A DNA stretch of 13,057 nucleotides from a virus (taxonomy: Duplodnaviria; Heunggongvirae; Uroviricota; Caudoviricetes). The position numbers and the translations under genes are program-made. Numbering within the stretch: the stretch's first letter is position 1; every line of letters begins with the position of its first letter. The DNA lies in the IMG/VR virus record IMGVR_UViG_2778261569_000004; one strand, written 5' to 3'. Positions 2,256 through 13,057 of this stretch are shown piece after piece. The notes beneath the pieces are model-generated. The model ran no database searches. It saw only the letters and a list, made by a program, of their open reading frames with translations, and was not told the origin of the DNA.

Positions 2256-3144
2256 CGTGTTCACCCTCACGAACTTTCAGGTAGGTATTGTCGTTAAGCA
2301 GGAAATCAAATCCCTTTTTGTGCCAGACGGTTCCGCGCTGATGGTTTGGGCGCTCTTCGAACATCCATCGGCAATTTTCGCCTACGTAGCTCAAATAATT
2401 TCTCCAGTCCTGCATCGTGAACCCATGCCCGTCAAGCTGGCGGGTTATCACTCCGGCTTTGCGCCAGAACGTTCGGATCTGGTTTTTACGCTTGTCATTC
2501 AGTGCGCGGATTTTTGGCGCTTCAGGAAGGATTTCGTGGTAAGCATCGACAACATCCTGACAGCTGACGGAAGGTTTTTTCTTGTCAGACTTTTTGTCTG
2601 CTGTGGCACTCTCTAATACGTCAGTATTAGAGATAATATTATTATATTCTTTATCTGTGGTAATTTGCTGGTAATCTGCTGGTACAGTATTGCTTGCAGG
2701 CATTGGTATTGCTGGCTTTGAGGTGGTAATTTGCTGGTAATCTGCTGGTACAAAATTTGACTGATAATCGTCATATTTCTCTACCGAGAAAACTGAGAAT
2801 TTACCGTGTGAAACCCAGTCAATCATGCCGAGTTTTTTGAACTTTCTAAGCAGGTACTGAACGCGATCTGGTTTGAGTCCTGTTTCAAACGCCAGAGAGT
2901 TTCTACCGCCAAGTAGCTTCCCTCTGCCTACCAGAATTTCTCCTGCGTCAGTCATTACATACTCAGGCGTATGCTTTGCTTTGAGGATTAAGTGAACCCA
3001 CAGATGCGCAGCTTCTGCGTCCTTGTAAAACGGCACATCCATAATTTTACGGTGCAGCAAGGCATACCCCTTACCGCTGCTTTGATGCGGTTGTTGTAGC
3101 CTTCTGGCCTCTCTGGCTTCGGCTAGATTAGATATGTTACTCAT
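2245..3144 (-). CDS. Replication initiator protein (lambda O / P22 gene 18 analogue) with origin iterons inside its coding sequence
   Basis: Sits between cII and the helicase as O does in lambdoid phages. Contains a direct-repeat iteron array plus an adjacent AT-rich tract (see repeat feature). AAGGAG Shine-Dalgarno before ATG 3144. The 3' end overlaps the helicase start by 11 nt. The protein is not obviously lambda-O-like by eye, so the family assignment rests on position and the iterons. Confidence 0.7.
2657..2753. repeat. Origin-of-replication iteron array (ori) inside the O-like gene
   Basis: Two perfect 30-bp direct repeats GTGGTAATTTGCTGGTAATCTGCTGGTACA at 2657-2686 and 2724-2753. Each holds two approximately 11-bp subunits GGTAAT(T/C)TGCTGG, with a degenerate copy GGTATTGCTGG at 2705-2716. 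An AT-rich tract (about 2615-2655) lies downstream in the O reading direction, as at ori-lambda. The repeats encode a duplicated [10 protein letters not shown] peptide in the initiator. Confidence 0.7.
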
Positions 3145-3283
3145 GACCTTTCTCCTTCTGCATCAGCTTCACTTTTTCCAACTCAGCCCGGAATCGACAA
3201 GGCTGCTTGAAGCTGGACAGGAAGCGATCACGTAGTATGTGTTTGTGAATTTTGTCCTGGTAAGGACTGAGTTGTTTTGTCAT
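3137..3283 (-). CDS. Putative small protein (48 aa) between cII and the initiator gene
   Basis: ATG at 3283..3281 with an AGGAG Shine-Dalgarno 7 nt upstream; translation [48 protein letters not shown]; stop overlaps the initiator start. Below the ORF-track size cut-off and unsupported by homology. Confidence 0.25.
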
Positions 3284-3317
3284 AATTACTCCTGTGGATT
3301 GATCCAGTCTTTCTACA

Positions 3318-3596
3318 TCAGGCCTCGAAGAATTCGCCGTTCTTCGGGGCTTTTTCTTTTGTCAGGATTCTGGCTACTTTCTTAGCCAGTTCCGCCAACT
3401 CCTCGTCTTCAACACCCCATTCAAGAACAGCCAGAAGCATTCCCATTTTGGGGATGAAGCTATCTTTCCATCGCGAAATTTGCGATTCATTAATCCCTAA
3501 CGCGTCGGCAACCTTTCGCTGACCACGTACAGCAATTCGATTCAGGATGTTGCTTGTAATTGCATTCGCTTTCTTGCGAGTACTTGTAAGTTGCAT
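3318..3596 (-). CDS. cII: CII transcriptional activator (lysogeny establishment)
   Basis: Recognised similarity to lambda CII, including the near-identical block SQISRWK...[13 protein letters not shown]. The translation-initiation region TAAGGAAATACTTACATATG matches the classic lambda cII ribosome-binding site, so the start is ATG 3596, not the upstream start in the ORF track. Confidence 0.85.
3323..3360 (+). terminator. Rho-independent terminator on the strand antisense to cII (oop-like terminator)
   Basis: Stem CCTCGAAGAA/TTCTTCGGGG (3323-3332 / 3340-3349, one G-U pair), 7-nt loop, then CTTTTTCTTTT (3350-3360). It lies on the plus strand inside the 3' end of minus-strand cII, the geometry of the lambda oop RNA terminator. 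Confidence 0.55.
3550..3563 (+). promoter_or_regulatory. CII-binding site TTGC-N6-TTGC (PRE-like establishment promoter -35 region)
   Basis: TTGCTTGTAATTGC on the plus strand inside the cII N-terminal codons, oriented to drive transcription antisense through cro towards cI, as lambda PRE does. The -10 element is not confidently identified. Confidence 0.5.
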
Positions 3597-3655
3597 ATGT
3601 AAGTATTTCCTTAACAAATAAGAAGTTATGCGCATCAAATTATGCGCGTTGTATT

Positions 3656-3698
3656 CCCGCATTTCGGCGGGAATGATGACCATGACTGTTAAAGAGCG
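3656..3698 (-). promoter_or_regulatory. nutR site (boxA plus boxB hairpin)
   Basis: On the minus strand just after the cro stop: boxA CGCTCTTTAACA (plus 3687-3698, reverse complement), then boxB hairpin CCCGC-CGAAAT-GCGGG (plus 3656-3671). The boxB sequence is identical to the one at nutL. Confidence 0.6.
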
Positions 3699-3704
3699 GT
3701 GTTA

Positions 3705-3899
3705 CTATTTGTTTTTCTTGTTGCTTGGGAAAGGACGAACTTCCTCTCCAATCACACTGCCATCAGGCTTTACCGTAACCATGATGTTACGGCCTGCCAG
3801 AATGGCCTTGCTGATAGCGCACTGGATTACACCAAAGTCACTGGCTGCTTTAGCCTGTCCATGGATTTTGGCGTAATCGGCAAGTGTCATTCGAATCAT
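3705..3899 (-). CDS. cro: Cro repressor
   Basis: Recognised similarity to lambda Cro (TLADYA..GQ.K.A.D.GV.Q.AI.KAI.AGR.I.....DGSV..EEV.PFPSNKK). Start placed at ATG 3899 with a GGAGAG Shine-Dalgarno 5 nt upstream. Divergent from cI across the operator region. Confidence 0.85.
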
Positions 3900-3929
3900 A
3901 TGCACTCTCCGTTATTAACCATGAACAAA

Positions 3930-3995
3930 GAATACTACAGGTATTCAAAGCAATCAATACTCAGGGTATTTTTAGTTTAAGTACCTTAGCTATTA
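3930..3995. promoter_or_regulatory. OR operator region: three 17-bp operators with divergent PR and PRM promoters
   Basis: Operators GAATACTACAGGTATTC (3930-3946) and CAATACTCAGGGTATTT (3955-3971) are palindromic; a degenerate third site AAGTACCTTAGCTATTA lies at 3979-3995. Centre spacings are 25 and 24 bp. PR candidate on the minus strand: -35 TTGATT, 17-bp spacer, -10 TATTCT. PRM candidate on the plus strand: -10 TAGAAT at 3994-3999, which places +1 at about the A of the cI ATG (leaderless; no Shine-Dalgarno before cI). Confidence 0.6.
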
Positions 3996-4005
3996 GAATT
4001 AAGCT

Positions 4006-4722
4006 ATGGAAAATAAAAAATCACTGACGACAGAACAGCTCGAAGACGCTAAGCGGCTTAAGGCTTTGTATGAGTCAAAAAAGAAAGAATTGGGAATAAC
4101 CCAATACTCAATCGCTGATGAACTGGGTATCACCCAAGGAGCGGTAGGGCATTATCTTAATGGCAGAAACGCGCTAAACGTTGAGGTCGCATCTGGTTTT
4201 GCACGTTTGTTGCAAGTCTCAATTGCTGATTTTAGCCAGTCAATTGCTGCCAAGGTTGCAGAACAGGCAGAAAGCCTTAAGAGCGATGCCAACGTAAGGT
4301 ATGCAGGGGAATACAGAGCAGGAAAGAGGTATCCGGTGTTAAGCAGTATCCAGGCTGGCTCGTGGTGTGAAGCATGCGAACCATACACCATTAAAGACAT
4401 AGATGTTTGGCTTGAGTCTGACGCGCATATTCAAGGTAATGCGTTCTGGCTTAAAGTGGAAGGTGATTCAATGACGGCACCGGTTGGGTTAAGCATTCCA
4501 GAGGGAACATTCGTTCTTTTCGATACCGGAAGGGAGGCGATCAACGGCAGCTTGGTCATAGCAAAACTTTCTGACTCTAACGAAGCAACATTCAAGAAGC
4601 TGATAATCGACGGCGGAAATAAATACCTCAAGGGACTTAATCCTGCATGGCCTCTCGTGCCAATCAATGGAAACTGCAAGATTATAGGCGTTGCAATTGA
4701 GACAAAACTAAGGCTGGTTTGA
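4006..4722 (+). CDS. cI: CI repressor (HTH DNA-binding domain plus LexA/S24-type autocleavage domain)
   Basis: Recognised similarity to lambda CI: N-terminal LTxEQLEDAKRLKALYE.KK.ELG..Q.S.AD..G and C-terminal FWL.VEGDSMTAP ... ATFKKLI (Ser/Lys dyad). Divergent from cro. Confidence 0.9.
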   Translation: MENKKSLTTEQLEDAKRLKALYESKKKELGITQYSIADELGITQGAVGHYLNGRNALNVEVASGFARLLQVSIADFSQSIAAKVAEQAESLKSDANVRYAGEYRAGKRYPVLSSIQAGSWCEACEPYTIKDIDVWLESDAHIQGNAFWLKVEGDSMTAPVGLSIPEGTFVLFDTGREAINGSLVIAKLSDSNEATFKKLIIDGGNKYLKGLNPAWPLVPINGNCKIIGVAIETKLRLV

Positions 4723-4739
4723 TCACGCAAGGGGCGATT

Positions 4740-5108
4740 ATGGTTGGAACCGCTATAGCAAGCTTTTTTGGGATGTTGGCAATCTCGACAATTTACGGCT
4801 TAGCGCATGCTTTTATTGCGAAATCTCTATCAGAAAAAATAAGCCAGGCTTGGGCGCATAGATCAGCTCGTTTCATGATTCTGGTGATCATAGCAATACA
4901 AGGGATATCTGCATTTATCCTCTATGGATCAAGCTTATACCTATTGTATCAAGGCGCGACATTTACGCCTTACACCAGTGATTACGGAACTCTATACGAT
5001 GGTAGTGAAGACATCACTGTGGCTTGGATCGTCTTTGGTTTATCTATGGCCGTGTCTGTTGTAGCAGACATCATTAAGGTAATTCTCGTCTTAACCTTCG
5101 CTGACTAA
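4740..5108 (+). CDS. Small integral membrane protein in the rex/sie position, co-transcribed with cI (candidate superinfection-exclusion or defence protein)
   Basis: ORF track frame 4719..5108; start placed at ATG 4740 with an AAGGGG Shine-Dalgarno, 18 nt after the cI stop. Three hydrophobic helices predicted by eye (about residues 1-25, 45-70 and 95-120). It occupies the lambda rexAB slot between cI and OL. No homologue recognised. Confidence 0.6.
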   Translation: MVGTAIASFFGMLAISTIYGLAHAFIAKSLSEKISQAWAHRSARFMILVIIAIQGISAFILYGSSLYLLYQGATFTPYTSDYGTLYDGSEDITVAWIVFGLSMAVSVVADIIKVILVLTFAD

Positions 5109-5193
5109 CCTATAATCCCGGCAGCAATAGCTATCGGGATCCACTTCACATATCCCGCATAAAAAGCACTGAACAAGCAGACACCGAAAAAAT

Positions 5194-5281
5194 AAATATC
5201 CTTTGTATTCATTTGCTTATCATTATTTCACCAAAAATAAATACCTTGGGTATTTACACAATAAAATACCTACAGTATTCT
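5194..5281 (+). promoter_or_regulatory. OL operator region and PL promoter
   Basis: Three 17-bp operators of the same family as OR: AAATATCCTTTGTATTC (5194-5210), AAATACCTTGGGTATTT (5239-5255) and AAATACCTACAGTATTC (5264-5280). PL candidate: -35 TTTACA (5253-5258), 17-bp spacer, -10 TATTCT (5276-5281), overlapping the operators as in lambda. Confidence 0.55.
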
Positions 5282-5326
5282 TTAGCCATCAGCAGGGCGC
5301 TGGAAGCCAAACGGAACAGATTGGCA

Positions 5327-5367
5327 GGCTCTTTAACATTGATGGGATTGTCCCGCCGAAATGCGGG
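5327..5367 (+). promoter_or_regulatory. nutL site (boxA plus boxB hairpin)
   Basis: boxA GGCTCTTTAACA (5327-5338) followed by boxB CCCGC-CGAAAT-GCGGG (5352-5367), identical to the boxB at nutR; lies in the leader between PL and N. Confidence 0.6.
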
Positions 5368-5475
5368 AACCAAAGAGTAGTTGGCTTTGGGGTGACGTGA
5401 AGTGCAGCTGCACGACGGCAACCGGAAGATAAGCACCCGGCGCGTCACCGCCAAAGTCAATCATCGGAGGTCAAC

Positions 5476-5748
5476 ATGACAGTAGTCATTACATATCTGG
5501 CTGACGATAACGCCAGAAATCGCCGCAGAGCACGCAGACAGGCTCAACGTGAACAGGCAATGCAAGAGCAGCGACTGGCACGAAAAATTGCGCTAAAGCT
5601 CTCTGGTTGCGTCAGAGCAGATAAAGCAGCATCACTCGGAAGCCTTTGCTGCAAGGAAGAAGATGAACGCAGTGGAAGTATTTGCCTGCCAAACGTAGCC
5701 ATTTACGCGGCAGGATACCGGAAATCAAAACAACTGACAGCGAGGTAA
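5476..5748 (+). CDS. N: Antitermination protein N (P22 gene 24-like)
   Basis: N-terminal arginine-rich motif NARNRRRARRQAQREQ (boxB RNA-binding ARM); C-terminus ...AIYAAGYRKSKQLTAR resembles my recollection of P22 gp24; GGAGG Shine-Dalgarno; first gene downstream of PL and nutL. Confidence 0.8.
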   Translation: MTVVITYLADDNARNRRRARRQAQREQAMQEQRLARKIALKLSGCVRADKAASLGSLCCKEEDERSGSICLPNVAIYAAGYRKSKQLTAR

Positions 5749-5751
5749 GTG

Positions 5752-5976
5752 ATGAATCAGACATACATTCCATCATGCTTGAGAAATCTGCCAAAGCAGA
5801 AAGCAAAGCCCCGCAAGCAAGCCATAAAGGACGCTAAGGCAGAGGTTATTGATCAAGCAATACAATTGCTCAGGGAGGAGTTAAGAAGTGGCAAGCTCGA
5901 AGGAATGATGATGCCCTATCAGCGCGGATATCTATCGGCGATTAGTAAGTTGGAAGTATTGAAGAGTGAATTATGA
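5752..5976 (+). CDS. Hypothetical early protein (74 aa)
   Basis: ATG 5752 with a GAGG Shine-Dalgarno, starting 4 nt after the N stop. Basic N-terminus, predicted helical. In the position of ral or kil-type genes but not recognisably similar. Confidence 0.45.
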   Translation: MNQTYIPSCLRNLPKQKAKPRKQAIKDAKAEVIDQAIQLLREELRSGKLEGMMMPYQRGYLSAISKLEVLKSEL

Positions 5977-6038
5977 ACTATCTGGAATTTCCGGATGGTT
6001 CATTGTTTTGGCAGCAAACCACTTATTTGAGGTGATGT

Positions 6039-6125
6039 ATGGAAGAAGAATTTGAAGAGTTCGAAGAGCATCCTCAGGATGTGATGGAACAATACCAGGA
6101 CTATCCGTATGACTACGACTATTGA
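6039..6125 (+). CDS. Putative very small acidic protein (28 aa)
   Basis: ATG 6039 preceded by GAGGTGA; translation MEEEFEEFEEHPQDVMEQYQDYPYDYDY. Below the ORF-track cut-off; speculative. Confidence 0.2.
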   Translation: MEEEFEEFEEHPQDVMEQYQDYPYDYDY

Positions 6126-6309
6126 TAAAAATCAATGGTGTGGACAATTCAAGCGATGCAATGGATGCAAGCTGCAATCGGAATGCATGGTTAAGCCTGA
6201 AGAAATGTTTCCTGTAATGGAAGATGGGGAATATGTCGATAAATGGGCAATACGAACGACGGCAATGATTGCCAGAGAACTTGGTAAACTGAACAACAAG
6301 GCTGCCTGA
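6109..6309 (+). CDS. Hypothetical small Cys-containing protein (66 aa)
   Basis: ORF track. Four cysteines in CGQFKRCNGCKLQSEC, a possible metal-binding knuckle. Ends just before a terminator. Confidence 0.4.
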   Translation: MTTTIDKNQWCGQFKRCNGCKLQSECMVKPEEMFPVMEDGEYVDKWAIRTTAMIARELGKLNNKAA

Positions 6310-6327
6310 TGGCGGCCTTTATTTTTG
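6298..6327 (+). terminator. Rho-independent terminator
   Basis: Stem AAGGCTGCC/GGCGGCCTT with a TGAT tetraloop, followed by TATTTTTGG. Confidence 0.6.
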
Positions 6328-6374
6328 GCATAAACAACAGAATAAACACAGCACTGAATTATTTGAGGTGAGAT

Positions 6375-6845
6375 ATGACAAAATCATGGAGCGTACCTTT
6401 TCCTGAATCAGAAACTGAACATGATGGAATGCCTGTTTTCTGGAGATTCCAAGCGACAGTTGAAGAAGATGGAATCAAAATATTCGCACTTCAATATATA
6501 GCTTTTCATCAGACAGATCATTATGCATGGTTGGTTCCTGCGCATTGGATTGTTAATTTTAAACCAGCACCAAATCAGTGGTTACAGGAATGGAAACAAA
6601 GGAGAAATAGATATGCAATTAAGAAAGTAGCAAAAAATGCCGAAAGATCTTTTGCATTCCCGACGAAGAAACTTGCCATTGAAAGTTTATTGCGCCGGAA
6701 GAAGTACCATTTAATGAGAATCAAACAAGATTTGGCTGTTGTATCAACTCTTGTTGATGGGATGAAGAATATTGATACATCAATACCAGATATTGAATAT
6801 AACTTTGGACACAACCAAGAAACAGAAAATTGGGTGTTTTATTAG
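6375..6845 (+). CDS. Hypothetical protein on a low-GC moron-like insert (156 aa)
   Basis: ATG 6375 with a GAGGTGA Shine-Dalgarno. A hand count over the first 300 nt gives roughly 37% G+C, against roughly 45% at the start of erf. Bracketed by the terminator at 6298-6327 upstream and by an inverted repeat (6860-6887) and terminator-like hairpin (6951-6974) downstream. No family recognised. Confidence 0.6.
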   Translation: MTKSWSVPFPESETEHDGMPVFWRFQATVEEDGIKIFALQYIAFHQTDHYAWLVPAHWIVNFKPAPNQWLQEWKQRRNRYAIKKVAKNAERSFAFPTKKLAIESLLRRKKYHLMRIKQDLAVVSTLVDGMKNIDTSIPDIEYNFGHNQETENWVFY

Positions 6846-7039
6846 TACGAATAAGCACTGTGTATTCATTCCAACGAGTGAATACACGGAGCAATGTCGC
6901 TCGTAACTAAACAGGAGCCGACTTGTTCTGATTATTGGAAATCTTCTTTGCCCTCCAGTGTGAGGGCCTTTTTATATGCATACCAATAACGCTTCACTCG
7001 AGGCGTTTTCGTTATGCAATCAAACAGAAGGAGCATCCT

Positions 7040-7210
7040 ATGCAACAGTTCGCTATTGCAGGGGCGGCATCGGTTCGCCCTTTCAACCCGATTTTATCGG
7101 TACAGCATTCACGAAAAAATATTTTAACCGGAGCAGACTTTAAACAACCAAGAATGAAAAGCTTGCTCGAAAAGCTTTGGGATATTTTGAAACAACAAGG
7201 CCGCCCATGA
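7040..7210 (+). CDS. Hypothetical small protein (56 aa)
   Basis: ATG 7040 with a GAAGGAG Shine-Dalgarno 6 nt upstream; in frame with the longer TTG-initiated ORF in the track (6935), which I consider an over-extension. Confidence 0.4.
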   Translation: MQQFAIAGAASVRPFNPILSVQHSRKNILTGADFKQPRMKSLLEKLWDILKQQGRP

Positions 7211-7377
7211 GTTTTACAGATAACTGGTCAGACGAAGAATTCATTCGTCAGATGAAAGAATTAATCGGTAACGAAGGAGATATTCATGTCACTTGCAACC
7301 ACCGTGAAGGAGAGCAAGTTACAGAGACGCATGTACACGCAGCAGGCGTTAATGTATCGCCAGAAGGGAGATCGTGA
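7207..7377 (+). CDS. Hypothetical small protein (56 aa), directly upstream of erf (Arf-like position)
   Basis: ATG 7207 overlaps the stop of the preceding gene (ATGA). Its position matches P22 arf, but that is not verifiable by eye. Confidence 0.35.
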   Translation: MSFTDNWSDEEFIRQMKELIGNEGDIHVTCNHREGEQVTETHVHAAGVNVSPEGRS

Positions 7378-7466
7378 AGGTGTTCGCGTATTTTTAAATG
7401 CGGCAAAGACTGAAGTATTAAATCAGCGTTATTTCCTTGGGCCATGTCCATTCTGAGAACAATCAT

Positions 7467-8072
7467 ATGAGCAAAGAATTTTACGCAAGACTGGCAGCTA
7501 TTCAGGAAAATCTGAACGCGCCCAAGAATCAGTACAACTCATTCGGTAAATATAAATACAGAAGCTGCGAAGACATTCTTGAAGGCGTTAAGCCGTTACT
7601 GAATGGTCTGTTTTTATCAATCAGCGATGAAGTTGTGTTGATTGGTAATCGGTATTACGTGAAAGCCACGGCAACTATTACCGATGGCGAAAACAGTCAT
7701 ACGGCAACCGCTCTTGCACGAGAGGAAGAAAGCAAGAAAGGAATGGATTCTGCACAAGTTACGGGAGCTACAAGCTCTTATGCACGCAAGTATTGCCTCA
7801 ATGGTTTGTTCGGCATTGATGATGCGAAAGATGCAGATACAGACGAGCATAAACATCAGCAGAACGCAGCAGCAAAGCAATCAAAACCATCACCTACACC
7901 TGAACAGGTTCTAAAAGCATTCACTGACGCAGCATTGCAGAAAAACACCGTAGAAGAGCTTAAACAGGCGTTCGCCAAAGCGTGGAAGATGCTCGAAGGC
8001 ACACCGGAGCAGCACAAAGCGCAGGACGTTTACAACATCAGACGAGACGAATTAGAAGGAGCGGCTGCTTAA
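7467..8072 (+). CDS. erf: Erf-family single-strand annealing recombinase
   Basis: N-terminal region MSKEFYARLAAIQENLNAPKNQYNSFGKYKYRSCEDILEGVKPLL matches my recollection of P22 Erf closely. Start at ATG 7467, not the upstream start in the ORF track. Confidence 0.8.
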   Translation: MSKEFYARLAAIQENLNAPKNQYNSFGKYKYRSCEDILEGVKPLLNGLFLSISDEVVLIGNRYYVKATATITDGENSHTATALAREEESKKGMDSAQVTGATSSYARKYCLNGLFGIDDAKDADTDEHKHQQNAAAKQSKPSPTPEQVLKAFTDAALQKNTVEELKQAFAKAWKMLEGTPEQHKAQDVYNIRRDELEGAAA

Positions 8073-8455
8073 TGGCACATTCGATTACTGTAAGACTAAA
8101 CAAGCCCGCAAGAGAGTTTCAGGCCGGGGAAAATATCGGATTCAACATCCGTGCTGGCGTTCAGTATTACGATCGCCAGACAAAAAAGAAAGAATGGACA
8201 AACTACAACGCCGTTGTATTTGCCAAGCCGGGAGCGCAAGCGGATTACTACCGTAGTGTTCTTGTTGAAGGTGGCATTGTAGAAATTACCGGAGAAAACA
8301 TCAGGGTTGATGTTTATCAGGGGCAAAATGGTCAATCAATCACTCTTGAATTACTGAATGCAAAGATTGGATTTGCAGCTTCAGGAAATGGCCCGCAGCA
8401 GCAAAGTAGTAACCAGCAGAACACCCCTGTATACGACGATTCCATCCCATTCTGA
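8072..8455 (+). CDS. Putative ssDNA-binding protein with an SSB-type C-terminal tail (128 aa)
   Basis: ATG 8072 overlaps the erf stop (TAATG). C-terminus ...GNGPQQQSSNQQNTPVYDDSIPF has a Gln/Asn-rich linker ending in DDSIPF, mirroring the E. coli SSB tail (DDDIPF). The N-terminal region is not canonical SSB by eye, so the OB-fold assignment is inferred. Confidence 0.55.
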   Translation: MAHSITVRLNKPAREFQAGENIGFNIRAGVQYYDRQTKKKEWTNYNAVVFAKPGAQADYYRSVLVEGGIVEITGENIRVDVYQGQNGQSITLELLNAKIGFAASGNGPQQQSSNQQNTPVYDDSIPF

Positions 8456-8478
8456 TTTAGAAAAATAAGGATTTAATT

Positions 8479-8772
8479 ATGCCAGCGCCTCTGTATGGTG
8501 CGGATGACCCGCGCCGCTGTTCCGGCAATTCCGTATCGGAGGTGCTGGATAAATTCAGGAAAAATTACGACCGGATAATGTCGCTACCGCAGGAAACAAA
8601 AGAGGAAAAGGAATTTCGCCACTGCGTATGGCTTGCAGAGAAAGAAGAACGCGAGCGAATTTACCAGACATCAATCCGACCATTCCGCAAAGCCACATAT
8701 ACCCACTTCCCTGAAATTGACCCGCGCCTGCGTAATTACCGCTCACGCTATGGCGCTATCAGTAATAACTGA
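8479..8772 (+). CDS. Hypothetical early protein (97 aa); size and position compatible with an Abc2-like anti-RecBCD protein
   Basis: ORF track. Lies downstream of erf, where P22 carries abc1 and abc2. The Abc2 assignment is positional and from memory only. Confidence 0.4.
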
Positions 8773-8782
8773 GGAATTTACC

Positions 8783-8950
8783 ATGAGAGGACTTGCATAC
8801 AATCCCAGCATTCTTCCGGCAGAAATGATTATTCGCCAGCGCGTAAAGCCAATGCCATCGAGAGAGGAATTACTTAAGAGAAATTCTTTTCCGTCAGTAA
8901 ATCAAAACAAATATCTGAATGCGATGTTGCGTAAAGGAGGCAAGCAGTGA
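8783..8950 (+). CDS. Hypothetical small protein (55 aa)
   Basis: ATG 8783 with a GAGGA Shine-Dalgarno; same frame as the longer ORF in the track. Confidence 0.35.
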
Positions 8951-9246
8951 GTGTATGTCTTATTGATAAACGTCGACGTGGGCAACAAATACCATCTGTT
9001 GAAATGCCGAATCACACATGGTTTTGCGTACTTGATATCGATGGTATGGATACGTTGGTTGACACTCGTCATTACTGCGATACCGCAACAGCTACTCCGG
9101 CGAAAGCAAAGAAAATTGCTGCTCTGATAGAAAACTGGACTCCACCTGATGGTTGGTGCAATGGGAATGATCGAGATTGGCATGAAAAAATGAAGGGCTA
9201 TATCTGCGATTTCTTACGTAAATGCAACGGATTCAGGGTGATGTGA
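8947..9246 (+). CDS. Hypothetical protein (99 aa)
   Basis: GTG 8947 with a strong AAGGAGG Shine-Dalgarno 8 nt upstream; overlaps the preceding stop (GTGA). No family recognised. Confidence 0.45.
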
Positions 9247-9247
9247 C

Positions 9248-9802
9248 ATGAACAAGATTGACTATCAGGCACTGCGTGCCAAGGCAGAAAAAGCAACGTG
9301 TGGTGAGTGGTCGCTCGAATATGGAGAGGAGAGATTTGATGCTGGTGATGCGCTAATTCATCGTGAAGTTGTTGGATATCTTCCCATTTGCAGAATTGAA
9401 GGAGCGCATCCTGAAAGCGGTTTCGATGAAGATTTCCAGATGGAACAGCAGGCCAATGCTGAATTTATTGCTGCCTTTAATCCAAAGGTTGCTTTGGCAC
9501 TGCTGGATGAACGGGAAAGAAACCAGCAATACATCAAACGCCGCGACCAGGAGAACGAGGATATTGCGCTAACGGTAGGGAAGCTGCGCGTTGAGCTTGA
9601 AGCAGAAAAACAGCGGGCAAAAGTTCTATTTATGGAAAATGCTCGGCTTAAGTCAGGCATAGCCGGTCTGATACACCTCGGTATTCGATATGCAGATGTT
9701 GAGGTCATGAAAATTGCTGGAGATGCCCAGCTTTCTACCCCATGCACTGACAGCATCATAAACAGCATTGCAACAGGCATTCGCATCAAAGGAGGTGAGT
9801 AA
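9248..9802 (+). CDS. Hypothetical protein with a coiled-coil segment (184 aa); possibly Ead/Ea22-like
   Basis: ORF track. The N-terminus QALRAKAEKATCGEW resembles a motif I associate with prophage Ead/Ea22-like proteins; the central region ERERNQQYIKRRDQENEDIALTVGKLRVELEAEKQRAKV looks coiled-coil. Confidence 0.45.
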   Translation: MNKIDYQALRAKAEKATCGEWSLEYGEERFDAGDALIHREVVGYLPICRIEGAHPESGFDEDFQMEQQANAEFIAAFNPKVALALLDERERNQQYIKRRDQENEDIALTVGKLRVELEAEKQRAKVLFMENARLKSGIAGLIHLGIRYADVEVMKIAGDAQLSTPCTDSIINSIATGIRIKGGE

Positions 9803-9978
9803 TGCGTGTGGCATGTATCGGCTTGTTACCGTACCCGACTCGTTTTTGGGCTTCTGCGCTAATTGCAAAGCCGCATGTCCTGATGGCTGACAACATCATC
9901 CCGGCACCAAAGCGCCGCCATACCGGTATTGCATCGGCACGACGAGCAGCAAAGAAACGCAGGAGAGCAAAACGATGA
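9802..9978 (+). CDS. Putative small basic protein (58 aa)
   Basis: ATG 9802 overlaps the upstream stop (TAATG) and its own stop overlaps the next start (ATGA). Translation MRVACIGLLPYPTRFWASALIAKPHVLMADNIIPAPKRRHTGIASARRAAKKRRRAKR. Below the ORF-track cut-off. Confidence 0.3.
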   Translation: MRVACIGLLPYPTRFWASALIAKPHVLMADNIIPAPKRRHTGIASARRAAKKRRRAKR

Positions 9979-10163
9979 AAAACCGTAAAGCAAAGATTCT
10001 GTTAGTTCGTAGAAACGCTCCTGGCGTCTGGCAGTGGGTGAGACTCAGCAACCGACGGGTGGGGTTAATGAAACATTACGGGATGATGGATTGTGGTTTT
10101 TGCAAAAAGCCCAGCGCGGCGCAAAACCGCTGGAAAAACCACTTGCGTACTAAAGGAGAGTGA
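9975..10163 (+). CDS. Hypothetical small protein (62 aa)
   Basis: ORF track; start coupled to the upstream gene. Confidence 0.4.
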   Translation: MKNRKAKILLVRRNAPGVWQWVRLSNRRVGLMKHYGMMDCGFCKKPSAAQNRWKNHLRTKGE

Positions 10164-10164
10164 T

Positions 10165-10374
10165 ATGGCTATTGCCGCAAGTTACACCATGCATCTCTAT
10201 TGTGACTGCCGCCAGTGTACGGAAGGTGTATATCCAGTGCCAGACTTCGGAGAGTATATCGGCACGTCATGGGCTGGTTGTGCAAAAGAGGCGCGTAAGG
10301 ATGGCTGGCGAATAAGCAAAGACAAAACACGTGCTTTTGCGCCTGGGCATAAAGTTTTGAGGATTAACAAATGA
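10165..10374 (+). CDS. Hypothetical small Cys-rich protein (69 aa)
   Basis: ATG 10165 preceded by AAGGAGAG; contains C-x-C-x2-C ... C (HLYCDCRQC...AGC). Confidence 0.4.
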   Translation: MAIAASYTMHLYCDCRQCTEGVYPVPDFGEYIGTSWAGCAKEARKDGWRISKDKTRAFAPGHKVLRINK

Positions 10375-10697
10375 CCACTATTACCAGAGAACAAGCTCTG
10401 AAAATTATTGAGGCAGCCGATGAGGTTATTAGTGCGCTTGCCGGAACTAACGAGGATGTTCACCCTGGTAGCGATAACATGCTACGCCTGTGGGATGACC
10501 TGAATGACCGTTACGCGCCGCCGGAAGTTGTGCGTGAGCTGGCACGGATTGCGCTGGCATCGTTGGAAGCAAAACCAATAGGTGCTTCCACATTGCAGAA
10601 CAGCAAGTTGACGGCACAAGTGACTACCTCAAGGATGGAGAATGGCCTATTGATAATGGGACAATTGAAGTATACGCCGCCCCTCCAGTGCCAGTAG
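10371..10697 (+). CDS. Hypothetical protein (108 aa)
   Basis: ATG 10371 overlaps the upstream stop (ATGA); ORF track. Confidence 0.45.
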   Translation: MTTITREQALKIIEAADEVISALAGTNEDVHPGSDNMLRLWDDLNDRYAPPEVVRELARIALASLEAKPIGASTLQNSKLTAQVTTSRMENGLLIMGQLKYTPPLQCQ

Positions 10698-11173
10698 TAC
10701 CTGAAGAAAAACCAATGCCTAACCCTCTTAGCATGTACGCGGTCGATGCTGTTGCCGCTATTGCAGAGGTGAGAGGCTGGAACGCCTGCCGCGCCGCCAT
10801 GCTTCATGGTGCCGAACCTGTAAGCCAAACTTACAAGTCACAACACACGCAGTTTGAACAAGTTGCTGACCTCTACGAAATGCAATTTGATGACGGTCGC
10901 ACTTGTGCCTTTCACACTGATGCGCAAAAGGCTGCGCAATGGCTTCAGGCATGCGACGGAAACAGGGTTCAGGAATACGTGAAGCTGGAGCGATTGCGTA
11001 ATGCGCTATCGGGCAACTCTCCGGTAACTCCGGATGGTTGGGTTATGGTGCCGAAGGAACCAACTCAGGCCATGATTAAAGCGTGGCTATCAGAGATTGC
11101 TAACTTTCGCGGTCATGCTGCTGGTTACAGGGCTGCTCTTGAGGCAGCACCACAGGAGGTTAACCGTGGCTAA
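10688..11173 (+). CDS. Hypothetical protein (161 aa from a GTG start; frame open upstream to 10538)
   Basis: ORF track, GTG start with no clear Shine-Dalgarno. Protein-like sequence (DGEWPIDNGTIEVYAAPPVP) continues upstream in the same frame, overlapping the previous gene. Confidence 0.4.
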   Translation: MPVVPEEKPMPNPLSMYAVDAVAAIAEVRGWNACRAAMLHGAEPVSQTYKSQHTQFEQVADLYEMQFDDGRTCAFHTDAQKAAQWLQACDGNRVQEYVKLERLRNALSGNSPVTPDGWVMVPKEPTQAMIKAWLSEIANFRGHAAGYRAALEAAPQEVNRG

Positions 11174-11450
11174 CCTGCAACTTGCCGTCAAAGGTGAATA
11201 CTTCGATGCCATGATTCGCGGAGAGAAAACAGAAGAGTATCGCCTGTGTAATGACTACTGGAATAAGCGAATTATGTTCCGGGAGTATGACCGCCTGATT
11301 ATCACAAAGGGATATCCGAAGCGCGACGACTCCAGCCGCAGAATAGACGTCCCGTATGACGGATATGAAATCAAGACAATCACACATCCCCACTTCGGCG
11401 ATAAACCGGTAAAGGTGTTCGCGATAAATGTGAATATCGGCAATGAATAA
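11166..11450 (+). CDS. Hypothetical protein, possibly ASCH/PUA-like (DUF3850-like), about 95 aa
   Basis: GTG 11166 preceded by AGGAGG. The pattern KGEYFDAMIRGEKTEEYRLCND ... resembles my recollection of DUF3850/ASCH phage proteins. The ORF track gives a longer upstream start at 11097. Confidence 0.4.
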   Translation: MANLQLAVKGEYFDAMIRGEKTEEYRLCNDYWNKRIMFREYDRLIITKGYPKRDDSSRRIDVPYDGYEIKTITHPHFGDKPVKVFAINVNIGNE

Positions 11451-11485
11451 CAACCCTCGCATTTGCGGGGATTTCTTTTATCTGA

Positions 11486-11509
11486 ACTCGCTACGGCGAG
11501 TTTTGTTTT
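11486..11509 (+). terminator. Rho-independent terminator
   Basis: Stem ACTCGC/GCGAGT with a TACG loop, followed by TTTTGTTTT. Confidence 0.5.
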
Positions 11510-11821
11510 ATGGAGATGATTATGGTCTGTTCAACATTCAACCATCTAACGTTACAGAAATACCAGCCAGACCCTGAAGATTTATGCTCACTGTGTGGCG
11601 GAAATCATGGTAAAGCCGCCATGATCGAATGTAATGACAAAATCCACATTTGCCTTAATTGCGTTGATGTCCTCGTTGATATCAAAAATGAGAGAGAAGA
11701 TAAAAAGCGTAGCGAGGCTATTCGCGCCTTAGATTCATGGATGCGAGATGGGTATAGTGCTGCGCAAATTTATGACTTAGCAATATCAAAAGGCGAAATA
11801 CCAGGAGTACGCATCGAATAA
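11510..11821 (+). CDS. Hypothetical zinc-ribbon-like protein (103 aa)
   Basis: ORF track. Two Cys pairs, CSLCGG and CLNC, about 20 residues apart. An alternative start at ATG 11522 is better placed relative to the GGAG at 11512-11515. Confidence 0.45.
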   Translation: MEMIMVCSTFNHLTLQKYQPDPEDLCSLCGGNHGKAAMIECNDKIHICLNCVDVLVDIKNEREDKKRSEAIRALDSWMRDGYSAAQIYDLAISKGEIPGVRIE

Positions 11822-11861
11822 GACATAACCGATATTCGAATTGAAGAACTGAAAGAACACC

Positions 11862-11888
11862 AAGCCGCCTGATGGCGGTTTCTTTTTG
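11862..11888 (+). terminator. Rho-independent terminator
   Basis: Stem AAGCCGCC/GGCGGTTT with a TGAT tetraloop, followed by CTTTTTG. Confidence 0.6.
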
Positions 11889-11902
11889 CCTGGAGAATTA
11901 AG

Positions 11903-12094
11903 ATGACCGATACCAGCCTGATTCCTGAGAAAGAAGTGATGAACAAGCTCGGTGTTTCATCACGTCAGACAATCTGGAACTATACCAAACGACACGGATT
12001 TCCGAAGCCAGTCAGAACCCACCCCAAATCATACCTTCGTGAAGCTGTTGAAGGGTGGATTCTTAACGGTGGCGTTAATCAGAAATGCTCCTGA
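11903..12094 (+). CDS. xis: AlpA-type excisionase / DNA-binding regulator
   Basis: AlpA-family pattern (EVMNKLGVSSRQTIWNYTKRHGFPKPVR...W). The 3' end overlaps the integrase 3' end, convergently. Confidence 0.55.
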   Translation: MTDTSLIPEKEVMNKLGVSSRQTIWNYTKRHGFPKPVRTHPKSYLREAVEGWILNGGVNQKCS

Positions 12095-12499
12095 TGTGCC
12101 AGAACAATTTATCAGCGTGAAGCTCATACGCTTTGCGCTGAGCCTCTATCCAATCGTGTTTATTGTATACGGACATTATCCCGCCAAGTTCATGACCGAG
12201 CATTCGCTCAGTAACATGAGGCTCGACATTCATCTCGGACAGACGTGTAACAAGCGTTCTTCTGAAATCATGTGTTCGCCAGTAACCTAGATCCATCCCT
12301 CCCCTTATTCTATTTACGAATCGGTTGGCTGCAGCGATGCTGATCGGTTTGTTTATGTCTTCTCCAGGGAAAAGAACATCATTGTACGTTGTCATGGCCT
12401 TTTCGAGAAAAGGCTTAATTTGTTCGAAGATTGGACGACGGATAACATTACCCATCTTGCTATGCTCTTTCGGTACGGTCCATACGTTGTCCAGCAGGT
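12075..12499 (-). pseudogene. int: Tyrosine integrase, C-terminal catalytic fragment only; N-terminal part displaced by an IS insertion
   Basis: Catalytic motifs HDFRRT and LGHELGGIMSVYNKHDW (Tyr nucleophile) present. The reading frame runs upstream without a stop to the IS terminus at 12500; the conserved box I Arg and the N-terminal domain are absent from this side. Confidence 0.75.

Positions 12500-13057
<558 letters not shown>

Follow-up and report, generated by a model that had tools for sequence, protein, structure and literature searches.

What does a tightly packed run of small genes in the early-left region of a prophage do, and do its products act together or singly? This question is raised by positions 8783 to 11450 of a 13,057-nucleotide (nt) stretch of viral DNA (Caudoviricetes; IMG/VR record IMGVR_UViG_2778261569_000004), here called the window, which is a lambdoid/P22-like prophage of Escherichia coli O111. 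The genes of this block are termed g1 to g9, and a further gene, g10, follows them. A preliminary description made from the letters alone had considered an uncharacterized counter-defence operon plausible. The comparisons described below point elsewhere: the block is probably a mosaic early-left accessory array, made up of independent modules that are expressed from the pL promoter under the control of N and whose products are directed at the host singly. Arrays of this kind are already known and catalogued, and the one in the window is partly decayed, having a frameshifted EaA-like gene and an int gene cut by an insertion sequence (IS).

Position and Architecture of the Gene Block

The block forms the distal stretch of a pL (early-left) operon antiterminated by N and is the equivalent of the "ea" genes of P22 and Sf6. 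It is also the equivalent of the variable part, from ea22 to xis, within the exo-xis region carried by Shiga toxin (Stx) phages. The early-left placement proposed in the preliminary description is borne out by the surroundings. On the strand transcribed from pL, the block follows a pL-like promoter, nutL, N, ral, erf and abc2 and is flanked by the recombination genes on one side and xis/int on the other; all of these stand on one strand. The annotations of strains 11128 and 2009C-3675 give the order cI, N, ral, erf, abc2, block, xis, int. Homology places the block in the same region, with identities of 90–97% to gp19, gp22 and gp23 of Sf6 and to L0063, L0064 and L0068 of the Stx phage 933W. 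Genes that could not be recognized by eye thus each belong to a named or numbered family.

Within the block, + strand open reading frames (ORFs) follow one another with junctions of −8 to +1 nt, as read from the sequence and recomputed. The block is entered from abc2 across 10 nt. From there, g1 and g2 overlap by 4 nt (GTGA), g2 and g3 are 1 nt apart, g3 and g4 overlap by 1 nt (TAATG), g4 and g5 by 4 nt (ATGA), g5 and g6 are 1 nt apart, g6 and g7 overlap by 4 nt (ATGA), and the GTG start of g9 sits 8 nt inside the preceding gene. A Shine-Dalgarno-like motif, matching AGGAGG at 4–6 of 6 positions with a spacer of 5–8 nt, precedes each start in the block and lies within the end of the upstream gene. 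The near-universal overlap of stop codons first described holds for five of the seven junctions, while the other two are 1-nt gaps. Similarly, the count of about nine genes was right as to tightly spaced + strand ORFs, but the genes number eight, one of them a pseudogene, with 10371–10697 and 10688–11173 being one; the intact proteins range from 55 to 267 amino acids (aa), not from 55 to 184 aa.

The operon runs beyond 11450, to a tenth gene (11522–11821) that begins 71 nt after g9 and then to a strong terminator (11862–11881). A consensus scan predicted no sigma-70-like promoter inside the block. Junctions as tight as these occur elsewhere in the same prophage, where N abuts the next gene (0 nt) and erf overlaps its neighbor by 1 nt, so that coupling is a property of the operon and is not specific to the block.

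The Genes and Their Families

Every ORF was assigned to a family in PHROGs, and all of these families are listed there as being of unknown function. Scans of all ten proteins against NCBIfam and PADLOC gave no matches, and PDB sequence searches gave nothing useful, so the earlier statement that the functions are unknown stands. This is in keeping with P22-like phages in general, in which most early-left genes are without known function (PMC8022706).

The 55-aa protein g1 (8783–8950, + strand) is a member of DUF2737 (Pfam PF10930, 112.3 bits against a cutoff of 25) and is 96% identical to Sf6 gp23. The 99-aa protein g2 (8947–9246, + strand), which has a GTG start overlapping the g1 stop, is a member of DUF7739 (PF24881, 75.4 bits against a cutoff of 27) and is 93% identical to Sf6 gp22. 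Both matches are full-length and above the gathering thresholds.

The 184-aa protein g3 (9248–9802, + strand) is an Ead/Ea22-like protein (PF13935, 107.8 bits against a cutoff of 27), with residues 3–152 covering positions 2–139 of the 139-position profile. It has a conserved N-terminal and coiled-coil part, followed by a unique C-terminal part that ends in IKGGE. The N-terminal part is 71% identical to that of Sf6 gp21 and 50% identical to that of 933W L0069 (Ea22). The coiled coil that had been noticed in this gene is confirmed by its family, for which a central coiled coil is documented (PMC10834534). Ea22 proteins consist of an N-terminal segment, a coiled coil and a variable C-terminal domain (PMC10834534, PMC7093339), and Ea22 of lambda and Stx phages is pro-lysogenic and tetrameric (PMC7093339, PMC10834534). 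Compared with lambda Ea22, g3 shares the PF13935 family, the N-terminal segment, the coiled coil and an ending of the K/R-G-E type, but has an unrelated C-terminal domain. A PDB sequence search with g3 gave no match at E ≤ 1, the solved C-terminal domain of lambda Ea22 included.

The ending of g3 is one of several at coupled junctions that are alike: g3 ends in IKGGE (9788–9804), g5 in TKGE (10150–10167) and g1 in KGGKQ (8931–8950). The significance of the C-terminal "K/RGE" motif of Ea22 was called unknown in PMC7093339. In the window, the codons of this motif, AAA GGA G(G), are the Shine-Dalgarno sequence of the next gene, and either translational coupling or the conservation of junctions may have produced the motif as a side effect.

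The next two proteins are small and basic. The 58-aa protein g4 (9802–9978, + strand; PHROG 13831, 1e-41), which overlaps g3 in the TAATG, has 15 lysine and arginine residues against 1 aspartate or glutamate, as its description as highly basic had implied. The 62-aa protein g5 (9975–10163, + strand) belongs to PHROG 1380. Both genes are unannotated but intact between L0069 and L0068 of 933W, where the g4 homologue encodes 51 aa and carries an in-frame deletion of 7 codons (21 nt).

The variation of the g5 family was examined at loci L024, L055, L062, L085, L110, L122, L125, L146, L156 and L163 of our viral set. The termini of the family are invariant and the middle is variable. At the DNA level the first 21 nt are nearly invariant, and the last ~45 nt likewise in most alleles, while the middle is only 37–75% identical at the protein level, at a proportion of synonymous differences (pS) of 0.5–0.64. 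A search for fusion partners of g5 gave no functional hint, as the only longer matches bearing a Pfam domain carry Ead/Ea22 or DUF4014. The cysteines of g5 are not conserved, and a zinc finger was rejected for this reason. An unrelated ORF in L085 bears the 3′ tail of g5, and tandem pairs of g5 paralogues are present in L062, L125, L163 and the phage-plasmid RCS47.

The 69-aa protein g6 (10165–10374, + strand; PHROG 926) is 90% identical to 933W L0068. The cysteine content noted for this gene holds, with 4 cysteines in all. Residues C13, C15, C18 and H62 are invariant in its homologues and form a candidate Cys3His metal site. A PDB sequence search with g6 found nothing meaningful.

The seventh and eighth ORFs together form one EaA-like pseudogene of a 267-aa protein (g7/8; 10371–11173, + strand), as revealed by alignment to strain 11128. 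One A is lost between 10585 and 10586 relative to that strain (GGTGCATTCC to GGTGCTTCC), and this deletion splits the 267-aa ORF into 10371–10697 and 10688–11173. The NCBI Prokaryotic Genome Annotation Pipeline (PGAP) calls an intact coding sequence in 11128 and a pseudogene in 2009C-3675, a genome with a sequence identical to that of the window. The protein is 38% identical to the C-terminal part of Sf6 gp21, and its tail, PQEVNRG, also ends 933W L0065, a protein that bears the annotation EaA-like. The possibility of programmed frameshifting at 10586 was rejected: measured against intact alleles the change is simply a deletion of 1 nt, there is no slippery run, and PGAP calls the gene a pseudogene.

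The 94-aa protein g9 (11166–11450, + strand), 97% identical to 933W L0064, is a minimal ASCH-fold (PUA-like) protein. The ASCH/PUA-like appearance first noticed is upheld by a fold test for a PUA-like beta-barrel, and PGAP names the protein "ASCH domain-containing protein". Near its N-terminus g9 carries a GxKxxExR motif, which we take, from the original description of the superfamily, to be the ASCH signature; G19, K21, E24 and R26 are invariant in 26 homologues. The match to the Pfam ASCH profile (PF04266) reaches 14.2 bits against a cutoff of 21.2, with 23 residues aligned, and PDB searches with the single sequence and with a family profile returned no ASCH chain. Of 634 homologues, which come from across Enterobacterales, the 120 best show an identity of at least 74%. 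Compared with other members of the superfamily, namely the E. coli N4-acetylcytidine (ac4C) amidohydrolase YqfB, ZmASCH of Zymomonas, the Enterococcus faecalis protein 3IUW and human ASC-1/TRIP4, g9 is minimal in its 94 aa.

Finally, the 99-aa protein g10 (11522–11821, + strand) has a CxxC...C...CxxC pattern and is 95–96% identical to 933W L0063 and Sf6 gp19. It has a weak match to a ClpX-type C4 zinc finger (E 0.015). With g10, which falls beyond 8783–11450, the accessory array ends.

Selection on the block was measured as the ratio of the proportions of nonsynonymous and synonymous differences (pN/pS), summed against the window allele over 160 viral loci (anchored on g9 and g6) together with Sf6, 933W and RCS47. 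The ratio is 0.07 for g9, 0.15 for g6, 0.21 for abc2, 0.27 for g1 (50 alleles), 0.31 for g10, 0.33 for g5, 0.35 for g4 (from only 12 substitutions), 0.38 for g2 and 0.42 for g3. The ORFs of the block are under purifying selection and are real genes. The preliminary description had named a lack of coding signal in homologous prophages as grounds for its refutation; the signal is instead present, with pN/pS below 0.45 for all genes measured.

Independent Inheritance of the Genes

Whether the genes form a unit was judged from two sets of viral loci. One set consists of 80 loci anchored on g9, which is at least 96% identical in all of them, and the other of 60 loci anchored on g6 that have enough flanking sequence. 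The full set of genes is present in 2 of the 80 g9-anchored loci, both of the O111 type, and in 1 of the 60 g6-anchored loci. DUF2737 and Ea22-like genes often occur around g9, though in highly variable form; g2 is found in ~14 of these loci, and g4-g5(-g6) in ~10. Around g6, g5 is found in 53% of loci, g4 in 42%, an Ea22-like gene in 68%, an EaA-like gene in 28% and the ASCH gene in 25%. In both sets g4 is present only where g5 is. The genes do not, then, travel together as a multi-gene counter-defence system with components co-inherited as a unit would, since many partial combinations exist and breakpoints fall at gene starts.

These breakpoints are sharp. Ungapped identity is ~0.97 inside g9 or g6 and falls to background within 20–30 nt upstream of the start. 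The exchange points examined, one upstream of g9, one upstream of g6 and one at either end of g5, fall at coupled stop/start junctions with an embedded Shine-Dalgarno sequence. The Sf6 record annotates "boundary sequences" in the same region, and the mosaicism seen here is of that type. The block therefore consists of independently exchangeable single-gene modules and is not an integrated system at the level of the operon.

The array is not confined to early-left operons of lambdoid phages. Positions 2312–5138 of the P1-like phage-plasmid RCS47 (L165, FO818745) hold it in the same order between pap and morphogenetic genes. The order is an Ea22-like gene, g4, a g5 paralogue, g5, g6, an EaA-like gene, one extra gene and the ASCH gene, with identities of 98% over 43 aa for g4, 97% for g5, 93% for g6 and 87% for the ASCH protein. 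P1-like phages have a regulatory circuit different from that of lambda, so that the targets of the array are probably host functions and not lambda regulators.

Comparison with Related Phage Regions

Among the closest known relatives of the block are the gp19–gp23 genes of Sf6 and the ead and eaA genes of P22. Sf6 has homologues of g1 (gp23, 96%), g2 (gp22, 93%), the N-terminal part of g3 (gp21, 71%) and g10 (gp19, 95%) in the same order after abc2. In Sf6, however, gp24, which is like P2 Orf83, stands between abc2 and gp23, and the place taken in this prophage by g4-g5-g6, the EaA-like pseudogene and the ASCH gene is filled by the Lar-like gene gp20.

The block also resembles the exo-xis region in Stx phages such as 933W, which likewise lies in the pL operon, on that strand, with the recombination genes before it and xis after it. 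Homologues in 933W are L0068 for g6 (90%), L0064 for g9 (97%), L0063 for g10 (96%) and L0069/Ea22 for the N-terminal part of g3 (50%), with g4 and g5 present and unannotated between L0069 and L0068. The exo-xis genes, to which the block is likened, are expressed early from pL and are dispensable, and their biochemical function is unknown (PMC8614690, PMC10789677). Taken as a block, the region alters the balance between lysis and lysogeny, the induction of prophages and the expression of host genes (PMC10789677, PMC8614690). Several differences set the window apart. Exo-xis phages use exo/bet/gam, whereas this prophage uses erf, an SSB-like gene (for single-stranded DNA-binding protein) and abc2. 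No protein of the block is homologous to orf60a, orf63 or orf61 (L0072–L0070), so that the strict exo-xis block of lambda, Phi24B and 933W, orf60a-orf63-orf61-orf73-ea22 downstream of exo, is represented by an Ea22-family gene alone. In addition, this prophage has DUF2737 and DUF7739 genes of the Sf6/P22 type, and an EaA-like gene, here a pseudogene, replaces L0065–L0067.

Control Elements and Flanking Genes of the Operon

A pL-like sigma-70 promoter (TTTACA-17-TATTCT; 5253–5281, + strand) was found by a consensus scan and would drive the whole leftward early operon. It lies between cI (4006–4722) and N, apparently the placement seen in lambdoid phages. Inspection of the sequence shows a nutL-like site (5327–5368, + strand) shortly before the N gene. 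It comprises GGCTCTTTAACA (5327–5338, + strand), which we take to be boxA from the consensus established for lambda and rrn operons, and a boxB-like hairpin, TCCCGC-CGAAAT-GCGGGA (5351–5368, + strand). The N antiterminator gene itself is at 5476–5748 (+ strand; Pfam PF25694 N_peptide, E 5.1e-15).

Terminator-like hairpins stand between N and erf, in the pL operon, at 5973–6003, 6298–6319 and 6950–7007. Across 4700–12200, a scan observed 16 terminator-like sites against 7.4 ± 2.1 expected. This is consistent with control of the distal accessory genes by N-dependent read-through. In the consensus scan, the 71 nt that separate g9 from g10 also contain two weak hairpins resembling terminators (11455–11470 and 11484–11503, + strand), and a strong hairpin with a T run, like that of an intrinsic terminator, stands between the array and xis (11862–11881, + strand). 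The distal boundary of the region is a xis-like helix-turn-helix (HTH) gene (11903–12094, + strand), named from the PGAP annotation of an identical sequence.

Two counter-defence genes known from pL operons precede the block on the same strand. Ral is encoded at 6109–6309 (Pfam, 159 bits). Directly upstream of the block, abc2 (8479–8772, + strand; PF11043, 213 bits; PHROG 656) encodes an anti-RecBCD protein 95% identical to Sf6 gp25 and is a known counter-defence or recombination gene. Between erf and abc2 lies a 127-aa protein (8072–8455) that has no Pfam match and is annotated as hypothetical. Its C-terminal end, ...DDSIPF, resembles the C-terminal tip of bacterial SSB, which recruits partner proteins.

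Mode of Action and Alternative Explanations

The main features of the block suggest how it would work. After induction or infection, transcription would start from pL, and N acting at nutL would allow read-through of the upstream terminators (about 5973–7007), through erf and abc2 and then g1–g10. Translation would be handed from gene to gene, because starts overlap or lie 1 nt from the previous stop and the Shine-Dalgarno sequence is in the last codons of the upstream gene. Phages swap the genes singly by recombination at short conserved junction sequences at the gene boundaries. Each product would work by itself on a target in the host, being a small factor that binds nucleic acids or proteins and tunes host physiology or the lysis-lysogeny decision. 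In such a scheme g3 may be a coiled-coil oligomer of the Ea22 type, g9 an ASCH-fold binder of RNA or modified nucleosides, g6 a small and probably metal-binding protein, and g4 and g5 basic peptides. One or a few of the products may instead neutralize host defences.

Some points weigh against this account. The promoter, the nut site and the terminators were recognized solely by their match to consensus, and the roles proposed for g4, g5, g6 and g9 are drawn from fold, composition or conserved residues alone. The genetics available at the level of the block come from Phi24B and lambda, and the orf60a, orf63 and orf61 genes of those phages have no counterpart here, which makes the transfer of their phenotypes weak. 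Moreover, the retention of the same order in RCS47 shows that joint transfer or persistence is possible for several genes and speaks against targets specific to the lambda regulatory circuit.

The alternative that survives best is that individual genes, at least one of g1–g6, g9 and g10, inhibit a host anti-phage system early in infection, alongside Ral and Abc2. This is possible but on the whole rather doubtful. Ral and Abc2, both present in the window, are proven antagonists of restriction and of RecBCD, respectively, in the same operon, and Sf6 has a Lar-like restriction-alleviation gene at the equivalent position. The counter-defence genes of pL operons (Ral, Abc2, lambda Gam and Lar) have small, early and dispensable single-gene functions, and the block shares with them this character and the operon. 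Small, early, dispensable and rapidly shuffled genes fit the profile typical of defence antagonists (Silas et al., 10.1101/2023.04.06.535777), and the presence of the array in a P1-like phage-plasmid likewise suggests host targets over the lambda circuit. However, the proteins of the block have no sequence similarity to Ral, Abc2, Gam or Lar in Pfam and PHROG searches, and Pfam, PHROG and NCBIfam gave no match to an anti-defence family. The strong conservation of g9 (pN/pS 0.07) is also unlike that of fast-evolving arms-race inhibitors.

The literature provides little for this alternative. Our search found no paper joining the exo-xis region with anti-defence; it found no mention of the RefSeq protein accessions of the block, an incidental mention of DUF2737, and only unrelated work for ASCH with anti-defence. 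Accessory-gene screens have included the neighborhood of abc1/abc2 (10.1101/2023.04.06.535777). Twelve peptide words from g1, g2, g3, g5, g6 and g9 were absent from the supplementary files of that 2023 preprint of Silas and colleagues, in which the genes screened are listed, and the first six of them were absent also from the supplementary files of their 2025 paper. These proteins therefore appear not to have been among those screened. It may be suggested, as a tentative proposal, that at least one block protein is a new inhibitor of an anti-phage system or a modulator of host nucleic-acid modification, and the best candidates would be g9, g6 and the g4/g5 pair.

A second alternative is that the smallest ORFs at least, g4 and g5, are non-functional, being either spacer or linker ORFs that preserve coupling and junctions, or neutral remnants. 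The pattern of g5, with DNA-conserved termini, a highly variable middle and cysteines that are not conserved, could be read in this way. Selection on g4 is judged from only 12 substitutions, neither gene offers a hint of fold or family, and the prophage around them has a frameshifted gene and an IS-disrupted int. Nonetheless, this explanation is improbable. The variable core of g5 has a ratio of nonsynonymous to synonymous substitution rates (dN/dS) of about 0.33 at near-saturating pS (0.5–0.64), and its ORF keeps a length of 58–64 aa across alleles that are 37–100% identical. The indel of g4 in 933W is in frame, and the larger genes all have pN/pS of 0.07–0.42.

It is very improbable that the block works as a single integrated counter-defence or host-takeover system of several genes acting together. 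In its favor are tight translational coupling throughout, the constant company of g4 with g5 and the recurrence of the order Ea22-g4-g5-g6-EaA-ASCH in RCS47. Against it, coupling just as tight is found elsewhere in the prophage, and mosaic breakpoints fall at the starts of g9 and g6 as well as at each end of g5. The operon as first imagined is contradicted, and for the most part refuted, by the patterns of co-occurrence, in which only 2 of 80 ASCH-anchored loci are complete and dozens of partial combinations exist; it is contradicted also by the tolerated loss of the central 267-aa gene, which is a pseudogene in this and other O111 genomes with its neighbors intact.

The preferred account, a mosaic array of singly acting modules, bears on more than this one prophage. 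The families are very widespread in E. coli, and their function is a long-standing gap in lambdoid phage biology. The functions of the block genes could bear on the induction of Stx prophages. If at least one of the products does inhibit a defence or modulate nucleic-acid modification, the fact that P22-like prophages, Stx phages and P1-like phage-plasmids all carry the array would reflect a function directed at the host and independent of the lambda circuit. The window itself adds no new element and is one more mosaic combination of catalogued families. By-products of its analysis are the recognition of 10371–11173 as a frameshifted single gene, the coincidence of K/RGE endings with Shine-Dalgarno sequences, and the location of exchange points at coupled junctions.

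The Prophage and Its Distribution

The distribution of the region was surveyed by megablast with positions 8400–11900. Chromosomal prophages of E. coli O111 are 100% identical over it, and parts of it match 3948 of 5426 complete E. coli genomes, prophages of enterohemorrhagic E. coli (EHEC) among them, as well as 602 phage records. At least 80% of the region is covered in only 15 genomes. Of the matching places in E. coli genomes, 653 of 8237 are plasmid-borne. A search of 8400–12100 for repeats found short, chance-level ones alone, and an Rfam scan of the whole window found no RNA family.

In strain 11128 the prophage adjoins sbcB. Its annotated order begins with the rightward replication module and continues with cII, cro and cI. 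On the strand of the block follow the N-region genes, ral, ERF, the SSB-like gene, the anti-RecBCD gene (abc2), the block, HTH/xis and int. The prophage of the window is 99.5–99.9% identical to it outside positions 3309–6006. Those positions, which hold part of cII/cro, cI, a membrane-like ORF of 129 aa (4719–5108, within the immunity region), pL, nutL and N, have no similarity to the prophage of 11128. The difference is an immunity-module swap between near-identical prophages.

At the other end of the window, int is truncated. Its similarity to the intact int of strain 11128 ends at ~12499, and an ORF of an IS3-family transposase follows; the truncated int and the transposase region occupy 12075–12455 and 12542–13033 on the − strand. 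Together with the frameshift at 10586, the IS-cut int suggests that the prophage is decaying and is probably non-excisable.

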